A stretch of DNA of 64,000 bases from a virus. Position numbers and translations under genes: made by a program. Under the pieces are notes generated by a model. The model saw only the letters and a list, made by a program, of their open reading frames with translations, did not search any database and had not been told where the DNA came from. The stretch spans positions 126,285-190,284 of the IMG/VR virus record IMGVR_UViG_3300027815_000003; one strand, given 5' to 3'. Below are positions 42,238 to 64,000 of this stretch, piece after piece. The first letter of the stretch is position 1; every line of letters starts with the position of its first letter.

Positions 42238-43058
42238 TTATTCTGTTATAAAGGTAAAGGAATCAATCGGGGTAACAACCCCGATACTATCCGTCCAGTA
42301 TACCCATTCCCCATTTCCCTGTTGATTCCATCGGTTCAGGTTGCGAAGCAATGTTTCTTCTGGCCTAACTGAATCAAGCATAACCCTACAGGTGCCAGTT
42401 TCACCCGTCTTGATGTGTCTCCATGAGTAAGGCCAGGTTGTAAACATTGGTTTCTCCTTGATTTGATATTTCTAGTTTACCATTAATCCTAGAGTCTTGT
42501 CAAGAGCTTTGCTCTTGGATTGTTAAAGCAATCGCAAGCCATTGTGAGGAACAAAAGAATAATGCTTCTCGTCAAGGCTTGAAAGCCTGTATTCGTCTGG
42601 TTTTCCATCGCCAGGGGTAGGAATGATAGCGTCTACGCGCAAGGTTAAGAATCCCACCTTGACAAGCTGCCCTGTTACCCACTTTTGTTTGGTGTTGGTA
42701 ATCATTCTCACCCTCCCGATTTGATGTGTTAATCATATCATTAATTTCTTTGGGTGTATATACGTAAATTTACTTAGTTTCTTTTTAGAACAATAGTTGT
42801 GTCTTACATAATGATTATCCGCAATATTTCTATCGCGGATAAGACTGAAACGTATTTTTATGTCAAATCCTCCAGAATATGATAATCCAACCCCTTTACT
42901 TTCCGCCATAGCTGTGCTTGTGCTATGGCTTCTTTCTTTGTATAAAACCACTCACAATAACCAGAGACTTGCTGCCCATCGGTATACATGGTTGCCCACC
43001 AAACTTTACCATACGCACCTTGCTTGATGTGCTCTAGAATAATAACCTTCTTTAGCAT
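42238..43058 (-). other. small cassette CDS (42238-42447, 42523-42711, 42858-43058)
   Basis: Each has its own promoter and GGAG/GAGG RBS. Confidence 0.7.
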
Positions 43059-43224
43059 GGTTGTTTACCTCACTTGATTTGATAGCTAAAGTATATCATT
43101 AATCTTTAGAACATACAATAGAACACCAGGTATAGGTTTGGTATACAAGAAATATAGAACTATTGTTCTAACCTAAAGGTAAAGAGAAGGCGTGCCGAAT
43201 GGCCCGCCTTACTTGACATAATGA

Positions 43225-43257
43225 TTACTTTCGGATGGTACGGGTGCGTTTACCCAT
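43225..43257 (-). CDS. basic micropeptide MGKRTRTIRK
   Basis: GGAAGG RBS; stop is the TAA of the 3' element; homologous to 51537-51572. Confidence 0.5.
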   Translation of the reverse strand: MGKRTRTIRK

Positions 43258-43423
43258 TAACCATCCTTCCTTGCTTTGAATGCTTGCGTACAGCACCCGT
43301 AATCTCCTGTCGGGTATGCCTATCCTTACAGTAGGTAAGCGTTTCGCCCACAAGATAAGGTGCATAACCTACCCTTGCCATAATCGCCTTACCATCCACA
43401 ATACACCGAGGCTTACTTGCCAT
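43250..43423 (-). CDS. hypothetical 57-aa protein (not in track)
   Basis: GGGAAAGGA RBS, ATG..TAA, downstream of a cassette promoter. Confidence 0.65.
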   Translation of the reverse strand: MASKPRCIVDGKAIMARVGYAPYLVGETLTYCKDRHTRQEITGAVRKHSKQGRMVNG

Positions 43424-43528
43424 TTTGTTGTCCTTTCCCGTTTTGACTTGTTACCATCTTAGCATATTTAGTTATTGGTTGCAATACGTAAACGATCCGT
43501 TTCGGATACGTAATTTTACGTAGGTTTT

Positions 43529-43723
43529 TTATCCATACAATGCCTCATAGCATTCCTTGTTACAGACAAGTTTCTTGCTTCCGTTGTAAGCATAAAGCCT
43601 AGTACGGATTTGACCGCACCATTCACACACGCCATAACCATAGAGTAGATCTTTAGCACTGTAGCAGGTTCGGGTATGCTCTTTGTGTGTATAGGGATTT
43701 CCCCAGGTTATAATGGTTGACAT
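43529..43723 (-). CDS. hypothetical Zn-finger protein with a structured 5' leader
   Basis: CEWC...C..EC. The leader stem TGTCAGAAAGT/ACTTTCTGATA precedes it. Confidence 0.65.
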   Translation of the reverse strand: MSTIITWGNPYTHKEHTRTCYSAKDLLYGYGVCEWCGQIRTRLYAYNGSKKLVCNKECYEALYG

Positions 43724-43964
43724 TGTTTCCCTCACTTGTTTTGATTATCAGAAAGTCTTAGAACTACTAAATGTGCGTTTATTTATGTAGTGCGGTAGAC
43801 TTTATGCGACTCGTTCCTCTTGTCACTTTCTGACATTCTTAGTTTACCATAGTTAGGCCCTGTATGCAATACGTAATTCTACTTAGTTTTAATTTAGCTA
43901 CTTTAGTTCTATTGTTCTGATTTTTTAAGGCCGCTCAAAAGAGCGGCCTTGCTTGACATAATGA

Positions 43965-44126
43965 TTATTGGCAGGCTTTGCGAAACTTGGCTTCGCTAAA
44001 AGAGGGATTGTCGGCAGCAAAAACCTGACAAAGGTCATTAAGAAGCATCCCTAAATGTATCTTCCCTGTCGGGTCTGTATTGGTTTTGAGGATTTTAGCT
44101 ATTGCGATATAGTCATTCTTTGTCAT
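43965..44126 (-). CDS. small phage protein MTKNDYIAIAKIL...DNPSFSEAKFRKAC (not in track)
   Basis: GGGAGG RBS; the DNPxF..xKF motif is of a recurrent small phage family; stop lies in the 3' element. Confidence 0.75.
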   Translation of the reverse strand: MTKNDYIAIAKILKTNTDPTGKIHLGMLLNDLCQVFAADNPSFSEAKFRKACQ

Positions 44127-62400: not shown

Positions 62401-62473
62401 ATTCTGCATCTAATCCGCCATAAGTTAATCTTCCATCACAAACACAACAACAATGATAATCTGCGTGTGACAT
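59413..62473 (-). other. block of small hypothetical CDS (59413-59709 through 62276-62473)
   Basis: Track ORFs. 60338-60613 has VDAG...DPCY and SGYGDGEYPVY (DUF4241-like). Confidence 0.65.
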
Positions 62474-62666
62474 ATTTGTTTATCCTTTTTTATTTTGTTT
62501 GTGGAAGTTGCTTTATTTCCCAATAATTACAAGCAATATGATAACAGGTTTTCCCCACAGAATAAGGAAGCAACGATACAAGTAGTTCATTATTTCCACA
62601 TCTAGGACATTTTTCGTACCAAATTATTTCGTTTTTCATTTTTTATTTTTGCCAGTTCATATTATT

Positions 62667-62743
62667 TGGTAGCGATGGTGCGATTCGGACGCACACCTTT
62701 AAATTTTTTAGGAATTTTGCCTCTGCCGTTGGGCTACATCGCC
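62667..62743 (-). tRNA. atypical tRNA with UAA (Leu) anticodon
   Basis: GGCGATG/CATCGCT acceptor plus ACCA, Leu-like D loop, loop CC-TAA-AA (C33), T loop TCCGAAT, short variable region. Confidence 0.7.
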
Positions 62744-62800
62744 ATGTTTTTATTACTGATTCAGTATATCATGTCTATTACATGATTACAATACGTAATC

Positions 62801-63784
62801 TTACGTATCTTTTGTATAACCACTTAATTGTTTAACAAGAGATAAATCCATAAGATACCATTCTTTATTTCGTTTATCAGACAATAAAGAAAATTCCTCA
62901 TACTCTCTTTGATTATAACAAAACGCTGCAGCTTCAAAAATACCATTATCTACTACACAGATATATGCTTTATCCTTTGGTGGATTAAAAGTTAATGGTC
63001 GTGAAATTTGTTGTGCATTATATTCTTTTACAAGAAAATTACCTTTTCGTAGTGCTGGCCCTTGAATATAGTATCCCATATAATTATTTTTCCCTTTCTT
63101 TTGTTGTTAGTTTATCATACTCACAGATAAAAATCAATAAGTATTTTTACTTATTTTCTCTTACTATCATTTGCGGCCCAATCATTTCTATCCCAGTTTT
63201 TTCAAATTCACCGCGCCAAATATCATTCATTTCTGAATAATTTCTGATAATAGCTGAAAACTCTTCATTAGTTAATACAAGATATTCTTTACTACCCCAC
63301 ATATTAATTAATCCAGACCTACGTAAGGCTTCATAACTATACCATGTTTCTTTTGATACACCATAAAGTTCATTCGGTAAATTTTTAAAATCATCTTTAT
63401 CCAAAATTTTTCCTTCTGCCCATTTTATTAAACCATTTTTTGTGTTAATATATCTACCGCCATTTTCGCATCCATTTTAGAAACACTCCCCATTTATTTT
63501 TACTCTTTCTTTTCTAGCCATTCAATATATTGTTCTGAAAGCGTATCTTTACTTATATTATCTACGATATTGCCTATTAAATGTTCAGCAGCCGCTTCTT
63601 TTGTCGTATGAAGATCAACGCAATGAAGCCATAAATTTTTATTGCTATTACCTTTAAATGATTGGTAATAAATTCCAAATCCCCAATCATATCCAACAAC
63701 CATACCAATAAAGTTATCGTTTTCATTATAAACATAATATGACTCTAAATACCCAGGATAATTTGCTACAGATAATCTTAGCAT
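62801..63784 (-). other. cassette CDS (62801-63079, 63147-63404, 63500-63784)
   Basis: Track ORFs; two have stops inside palindromes. Confidence 0.7.
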
Positions 63785-63825
63785 TTATTTTACCTTTTCT
63801 TTTATACCATAAACTAAAACGTGAG

Positions 63826-64000
63826 ACAATACGTAAAATTACGTATTATTCTGTTCCAATATTGCCCACAAGATAGAGGCCGTTTGGCGAATATATTCGG
63901 CCCGAAGGCGGGCCATTTGGCGTTTATATTCGGACAGAAATATGGACGACAAAAACTTTGAGGCAAACCATTCTAAATCTAACTTAAGCTCTACCGCCCT
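63826..64000 (-). repeat. second copy of the 52589-52939 cassette (3' part; runs off the window)
   Basis: Identical to 52576 onward except that two of the four internal repeats are missing. Confidence 0.92.

Follow-up and report, generated by a model that had tools for sequence, protein, structure and literature searches.

A putative FixJ/NarL-type operator at the promoters of a shuffled accessory-gene array in a groundwater phage

The promoter array

The final 64,000 bp (the window) of the 190,284-bp virus record IMGVR_UViG_3300027815_000003 contain a long array of promoter modules. The record represents a groundwater phage genome of ~190 kb, with genes for terminase, portal and major head protein. 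Each module starts with a 16-bp palindromic box, which is followed by a -35 element, a spacer, a -10 element, a leader and a ribosome-binding site (RBS). The features are listed in Table 1. Positions refer to the window unless they are given as genome positions.

The exact palindrome TACGTA-N4-TACGTA occurs 21 times, always within 43507-63845, and is absent from shuffled sequences. When up to two mismatches are allowed, there are 45 copies (1.8 expected), 44 of which are located in 42761-63845. The lone outside match, at 15159, is at chance level. A motif scan of the whole genome extended the array beyond the contig end by 18 further promoter-linked sites (genome 110-30153). Together with the 40 sites in 42761-63845, this results in 58 sites which span ~51 kb and are on the minus strand throughout. 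The consensus, originally given as the exact palindrome, had to be corrected to TA(C/A)GTA-N4-TAC(G/T)TA. The N4 spacer is free, with 15 kinds among the 58 sites. Avoidance of TACGTA of the restriction type was considered and dismissed, as there is no real depletion outside the array (7 observed, 10.1 expected).

The promoter geometry is rigid, and in this respect the predicted array of about 40 units is real. T(T/A/G)G follows the box directly in 52 of 58 sites, and TAnnnT is found exactly 17 bp past the -35 hexamer in 53 of 58 (on the other side of the box in 1 of 58; background 0.035 per position). The -10 element is TG-extended in 39 of 55 promoters. The leader motif that had been described as ATCAAA was recovered, TCAAA being present in 21 of 55 leaders (background 0.056). 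The -35 element is degenerate, with TTGACA in just 2 of the 58 box promoters, whereas 28 TTGACA-17-TAnnnT promoters exist elsewhere in the genome, all of them without a box. The median distance between sites within the window is 489 bp, and 13 of 51 stop codons fall within a box. Despite the rigid layout, it is not correct that nearly every gene has a unit of its own: only 59% of the gene starts have their own box, and units in the 57-64 kb region hold up to four called genes. Two composite sites in the window (Table 1) and a third one at genome 4135 deviate from the standard module. The displacement of 22 bp corresponds to about two helical turns.

Table 1. Features of the array region (window positions; a dot marks features not assigned to one strand)
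Position	Strand	Feature	Remarks
38660..56758	.	TAGAACAATAG motif, 27 exact copies, both strands	none elsewhere in genome; 6 extend to GAAC-N4-GTTC (LexA-like)
38749..49169	.	TT(A/G)TGTCAAG(C/T), XerD arm of actinobacterial-type dif, 11 copies	9 directly after stop codon, before shared GC-rich hairpin
41768..42037	-	LuxR/GerE protein with NarL/FixJ-fold helix-turn-helix (HTH), 89 aa, receiver-less; candidate binder/activator	Pfam GerE E=1.3e-12
42065..42093	-	promoter of the HTH gene, consensus TTGACA-17-TATAGT, no palindrome	
42761..63845	-	array of 40 promoter modules: box, degenerate -35, 17-bp spacer, TG-extended -10, leader (often ATCAAA), RBS	
43485..43522	-	composite site: N4 pair displaced 22 bp upstream, third half-site flush with -35	
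47446..47483	-	composite site as at 43485..43522, but 16-bp insert flanked by two TACGTA hexamers in inverted orientation	28-bp inverted 100% match, genome 169769-169796 and 173757-173730
48708..48744	-	single sequence resembling a CRISPR repeat, with a unit of its own	Rfam CRISPR-DR9 34.2 bits, E=2e-4, below gathering score 45
51056..51234	-	conserved core of ORF-free unit (ORF, open reading frame)	84.6% to relative, 58-nt invariant stretch
52576..53014	-	duplicated unit, 116-aa ORF with internal tandem repeats	copied at contig end
59104..59178	-	tRNA-Arg(TCT) cargo	
62667..62743	-	tRNA-Leu(TAA) cargo	
63826..64000	-	second copy of 52576..53014 unit (one internal repeat fewer)	off contig end, resumes at genome 1-127 after 59-bp gap

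The box as a putative operator

The box reads as a putative transcription-factor site of the FixJ/NarL type, not as a recombination site. The proposal that it acts as an operator is thus supported, and the box can now be assigned to a family and to an activator position. As a 16-bp inverted repeat, it fits the 7-2-7 arrangement of NarL and FixJ sites. In sequence, it resembles the experimentally defined FixJ site at fixK of S. meliloti, which is TAAGTAATTTCCCTTA (the FixJ class obtained by systematic evolution of ligands by exponential enrichment is GTAMGTAG) (PMC4999443). Compared to the fixK site, 50 of 56 phage boxes match at 11-13 of the 16 positions. Boxes from a relative phage (see below) match at 12-14, so that identity reaches 14 of 16, with the common half-site TA(A/C)GTA. 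In contrast to the FixJ site, the phage boxes are near-perfect palindromes and occur in 58 copies, the candidate reader has neither a receiver domain nor a kinase, and there is no connection with oxygen or nitrogen fixation.

At yeaR of E. coli, NarL activates from a 16-bp 7-2-7 site which is located just upstream of the -35 element and is centred at -43.5 (PMC10853779). The phage box would also be centred at about -43.5, assuming a standard -35 position and a transcription start predicted from the -10 element. The candidate phage reader has the same DNA-binding fold as NarL. The phage heptamer differs, and activation of the phage promoters is postulated, with the start taken from the -10 position. 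A literature search for TACGTA in connection with phage promoters returned nothing relevant.

The box is also used by bacteria. It was found together with TTGACA or TAGACA in 60 contigs from GTDB, at the same promoter position and with ordinary chromosomal genes downstream. These contigs are from Bacteroidota, Chloroflexota, Planctomycetota, Nitrospirota, Proteobacteria and other phyla, with up to 18 box copies per genome. In 8 of 44 genomes, a GerE regulator is encoded in the same locus, in 7 of them within 1 kb, while 0.95 are expected from the per-genome GerE counts (p=7e-6). The neighbouring regulators share the recognition helix SxRT(V/A)ExH.

Two observations on other genomes are added. 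Metagenome-assembled genomes of Tannerella (L198, L205, L227, L243, L246) have paired boxes, 34 bp apart, before many genes for lipoproteins and surface proteins, which may constitute an undescribed FixJ-type regulon. Box clusters at promoters are also found in unrelated high-GC viral or metagenomic contigs (L166, L171, L173, L024, L047, L069, L096, L032), some of which pair the box with a TTTTACAA...CCGGGCC(T/C)GGCCCGG element.

Rearrangement of the units

A relative phage (~70-85% nucleotide identity) was obtained from a metagenome scan, and groundwater assemblies allowed its sequence to be extended over ~27 kb. IMG/VR yielded no close relative of the array, and relatives of the capsid protein (~70% identity) are fragments without a box. 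The relative has the same promoter module and a very different gene order: 24 of 47 genes are orthologous, and just four adjacencies are kept. Units have been reordered, gained and lost, so that they are indeed shuffled.

It had also been claimed that the palindrome is the cassette boundary, and this was not confirmed. Many conserved blocks end 1-6 bp from a box, which is expected because most distal genes are monocistronic. The ends of broken adjacencies are located at a box in 26 of 39 cases, compared to a baseline of 0.59 (p=0.2), and thus are not enriched; for 9 of the 39, both phages lack a box. The test has power in the polycistronic stretch, and there only 2 of 12 broken ends are at a box. 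The edges of homology are scattered. Homology of the upstream gene stops anywhere from 8 bp before the box to 5 bp into the -35 element, while that of the downstream gene may start as early as the box, within the spacer or the leader, or as late as the start codon. Ungapped edge scores are weak where indels are close to the site, and only clear cases were relied on. It follows that promoter and cargo do not move as one fixed cassette. At the strain level, one swap in the relative starts 3 nt into the -35 element and rejoins at the ATCAAA leader, and another divergence lies well ahead of the box, in the terminator region. Breakpoints that fall independently of the palindrome had been named in advance as the outcome that speaks against cassettes, and this is largely what was found.

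In effect, the genome closes into a circle of ~190.3 kb. The contig ends inside the second copy of the 52576-53014 unit, and the 59 bp missing between its ends are overlapped by other assemblies of the same phage. Because the genome is effectively complete, the failure to find a gene in it is informative. It yielded no tyrosine, serine, integron or IS110 recombinase (PF00589, PF00239, PF07508, PF13495), which extends to the whole genome what had been noted for the window, and a search for an ERF recombinase was also negative. A match to PF01548 is sub-threshold (41 positions in a 154-aa frame) and was rejected; the frame probably codes for a RuvC-like resolvase.

An integron-like system, in which an unrecognised recombinase cuts the palindrome and moves promoter plus cargo as circles, is largely refuted, and we regard it as extremely improbable. 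It shares with integron arrays (IntI/attC) that the units are co-oriented, heterogeneous and exchangeable. A recent duplication is bounded by boxes on both sides (identity ends 2 nt beyond the upstream box and, after the downstream box, 4 nt inside the -35 element), and the 16-bp insert flanked by two TACGTA hexamers has been flipped. Furthermore, two boxes are joined head to head, over 21 identical bases, in a low-coverage contig (L258, coverage 1.9), and one assembly (L177) skips 11 kb between the duplicate units, which is ambiguous as a sign of a mini-circle. Each of these cases is, however, accounted for by microhomology, template switching or assembly collapse. The duplicate retains both of its N4 spacers, whereas one fixed crossover should have created a new one. 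The L258 join and the 11-kb skip are typical of assemblers at repeats, and the relative carries the genes of the 11-kb region in line. The phage lacks IntI, which was searched for by PF00589 and PF13495, and a fixed crossover at every cassette border, and its promoters do not move together with the cargo. Its sites are 16-bp AT-rich boxes, each with its own promoter, and, as judged from sequence and layout, not attC-type folded single-strand sites of mostly promoterless cassettes. The left end of L255 and the L258 inversion were set aside as probable assembly chimeras.

Site-specific exchange might also be attributed to host XerD, which would act on dif-like half-sites after stop codons and drive the distal shuffling, the palindrome being merely regulatory. 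The 11 XerD arms are identical or nearly identical to the dif arm of F. alni (PMC3025954), and nine have a TAA(A/T)CA spacer resembling the ...ACA of that dif. The hairpins behind them have z-scores of -2.4 to -4.9. The arms occur nowhere else in the genome and are kept in the relative, often directly beside the CTATTGTTCTA motif. The XerD arm of dif/pdif sites is thus present, but a conserved XerC arm across the 6-bp spacer is not, as the left arms consist of variable coding sequence. Moreover, shuffling is just as extensive at 50-64 kb and in the 30 kb past the contig end, where there are no arms, and XerD-only half-sites (XDS) have a known non-recombination role in the unloading of SMC (PMC11894783). 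We therefore consider it very improbable that XerD drives the shuffling. The arms and the TAGAACAATAG copies, which are also kept in the relative, are located in the GC-richer distal part (38.7-57 kb).

T4-type phages exchange genes by homologous recombination at conserved regulatory linkers, the promoter-early stem-loops (PeSLs) (PMC2839356, PMC4122927). The array works like PeSL linkers, yet it is not a PeSL system by the defining features, and it is not an integron. Thus, the initial statement that the site resembles neither PeSL nor attC stands for the structure (there is no stem-loop in each module, and attC features are lacking) but not for the shuffling, which behaves as at PeSLs. The likeness consists of ~50 sigma70-like promoter modules before small ORFans in a plastic region, of modules which start at the upstream stop codon, and of shuffling by homologous recombination without a recombinase. 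Between relatives, the crossovers of indels and swaps lie within modules, and some exchanges occur at box-less gene boundaries. In contrast, PeSL promoters are strong, have consensus -35 and -10 elements and are defined by a stem-loop, while here the -35 element is weak, a transcription-factor box defines the module, and the phage is not T4-like. Strong hairpins occur at only ~10 distal junctions; elsewhere, genes run into the box.

Candidate reader and proposed function

The only GerE protein of the genome is the HTH protein encoded just beyond the last box. Its structural model overlays the DNA-binding domains of LiaR, VraR and NarL with probability 1.00 (root mean square deviation 0.6 A to LiaR and 1.3 A to NarL). 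The Foldseek E-value is only ~1e-3 because the protein is small. Orthologs with 60-66% identity are encoded in the same neighbourhood in two relatives, and in the relative phage the gene is also near the distal end of the array. The box-less promoters near the HTH gene (window 41605, 42093; L263; L281) share an upstream element, ATAGA(C/T)AAA...CTATAGAA, which suggests a second promoter class.

We consider it likely that a dimeric HTH protein of the NarL/FixJ family binds the palindrome at about -43.5, that the ~58 promoters are one co-regulated class, and that genes are exchanged as at PeSLs. That the reader is the phage HTH protein rather than a host regulator is slightly favoured. The recognition helix is SPRTITT here and SPRTVEV in the relative, while the boxes are mostly TACGTA here and mostly TAAGTA-N4-TACTTA there. 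The shift is array-wide (proximal half-site TACGTA in 52 of 58 sites here, TACTTA in 22 of 26 in the relative), as would be expected if the boxes track the binding protein. This joint change, seen in two phages only, is suggestive of a phage reader.

Alternatively, a response regulator of the host, of FixJ/NarL type, might read the box with the same activating geometry, which would couple the accessory genes to a two-component signal of the host. The phage HTH protein would then have another target or act as a competitor. This would agree with the use of the box in the chromosomes of many phyla, beside regulators with the SxRTVExH helix. However, with 58 promoters depending on it, such a signal would leave a lytic phage at the mercy of its host. 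In addition, three related phages retain the HTH gene beside the array, and consensus and helix change together between the two phages. Although a host reader has to be taken seriously, we consider it unlikely.

The following course of events is proposed. After DNA entry, host sigma70 polymerase would read the box-less consensus promoters, including that of the HTH gene. As a receiver-less protein, the HTH protein would need no phosphorylation; it would dimerise on the boxes and recruit polymerase as NarL does at yeaR. The accessory-gene region may thus be switched on as a second wave. The weak -35 element beside the box would be deliberate. Every unit would carry a similar module of 60-100 bp (box, -10, ATCAAA leader, RBS), joined distally by a shared terminator module. 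Because every unit carries such a module, exchange could occur anywhere inside it, and RecA-type or microhomology recombination may swap genes as at the PeSLs of T4-type phages. The phage encodes RecA, which would be the presumed agent. No sigma factor was found in the phage genome.

Activation rather than repression is quite likely, as it fits the contrast between box promoters and the box-less TTGACA promoters. As an alternative, the box might be a repressor operator: the promoters would fire on entry via their extended -10 elements, and the HTH protein would silence them all later. Early regulons of mobile elements are often co-repressed, examples being ArdK/CUP of IncN plasmids and MrpR/SPBRE of SPbeta, and the frequent TG extension would suit this. 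However, the box abuts the -35 element and never overlaps it, the -35 element is degenerate selectively where a box is present, and the promoter of the HTH gene has no box, which implies that there is no autoregulation. Repression therefore appears improbable.

Several findings weigh against the reading that we prefer. (i) The 39 TG-extended -10 elements could fire promoters without an activator. (ii) The helix SPRTITTQLS departs from SxRTVExH at the equivalents of K188, V189 and K192 of NarL. (iii) Complete phages with 3-9 boxes (G014, G022) lack a GerE protein, so that host regulators can evidently be readers. (iv) The HTH promoter of the relative has a weak -35 element and no box. (v) In the mostly monocistronic distal part, 24 of 27 broken ends are at boxes (baseline 0.70, p=0.02). 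(vi) The recent duplication described above ends at boxes on both sides. It is tempting to speculate that protein-bound boxes, or adjacent host XerD arms, also direct where strands are exchanged. A single site would then be switch and cassette joint at once, in a second wave of 58 promoters under a receiver-less FixJ-type activator; this is rather improbable.

Phage activators of host sigma70 promoters include T4 MotA (middle promoters), phi29 p4 and Mu Mor/C. As proposed here, an early phage protein turns on a second promoter class via a box at or near the -35 element. Those proteins do not have the LuxR/FixJ fold, and the MotA box replaces the -35 element instead of abutting it. We found no description of a class of receiver-less FixJ-type phage activators. 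What is new is the FixJ-type identity of the box together with a candidate binding protein. This bears on how large sigma70-dependent phages without a sigma factor of their own time their accessory genes. If confirmed, the 89-aa protein and its 16-bp site would be a compact, kinase-independent pair of activator and promoter. The result argues against reading palindrome-bounded promoter arrays as integrons.

Cargo and other features

Most cargo proteins could not be assigned to a family, exceptions being DUF932, DUF2786, DUF2958 and an L7/L12-like domain. The cargo had been described as heterogeneous, which is correct for the two tRNAs and, below the Rfam cut-off, for the CRISPR-DR9-like repeat; no other non-coding RNA matched Rfam. 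The solitary repeat is possibly an RNA anti-CRISPR. Directly upstream of tRNA-Arg (window 59190-59230) is a tRNA-like remnant which starts like the 5' half of a tRNA and is 86% conserved in the relative.

An ORF-free unit (window 51031-51524; ~880 nt in the relative, L182:4566-5445), which also had no Rfam match, contains the conserved core listed in Table 1. Its 58-nt stretch is invariant between phages whose proteins share only 60-88% identity. The core is probably a structured RNA and a candidate for a new one. A second ORF-free conserved stretch is located at window 51524-51900.

Genome context

The host may belong to Chloroflexota or other Terrabacteria. This is hinted at, not decisively, by weak matches to the CRISPR repeat (8 of 201 Chloroflexota genomes), by dif-like arms (5 of 121) and by the LexA-like box. 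The GC content climbs from ~0.27 to ~0.39 across window 38500-54000. Convergent transcription meets at ~39.8-40.7 kb, where there is a 77-bp inverted repeat (39778-39853 and 40667-40738); this region is possibly a physical genome end or the region injected first. A 1743-aa polyprotein, in which a tRNA nucleotidyltransferase leads, is encoded at L003:9268-14499. A 377-aa ORF on the plus strand (window 8586-9719) has an N-terminus that appears to resemble IS605 TnpB.

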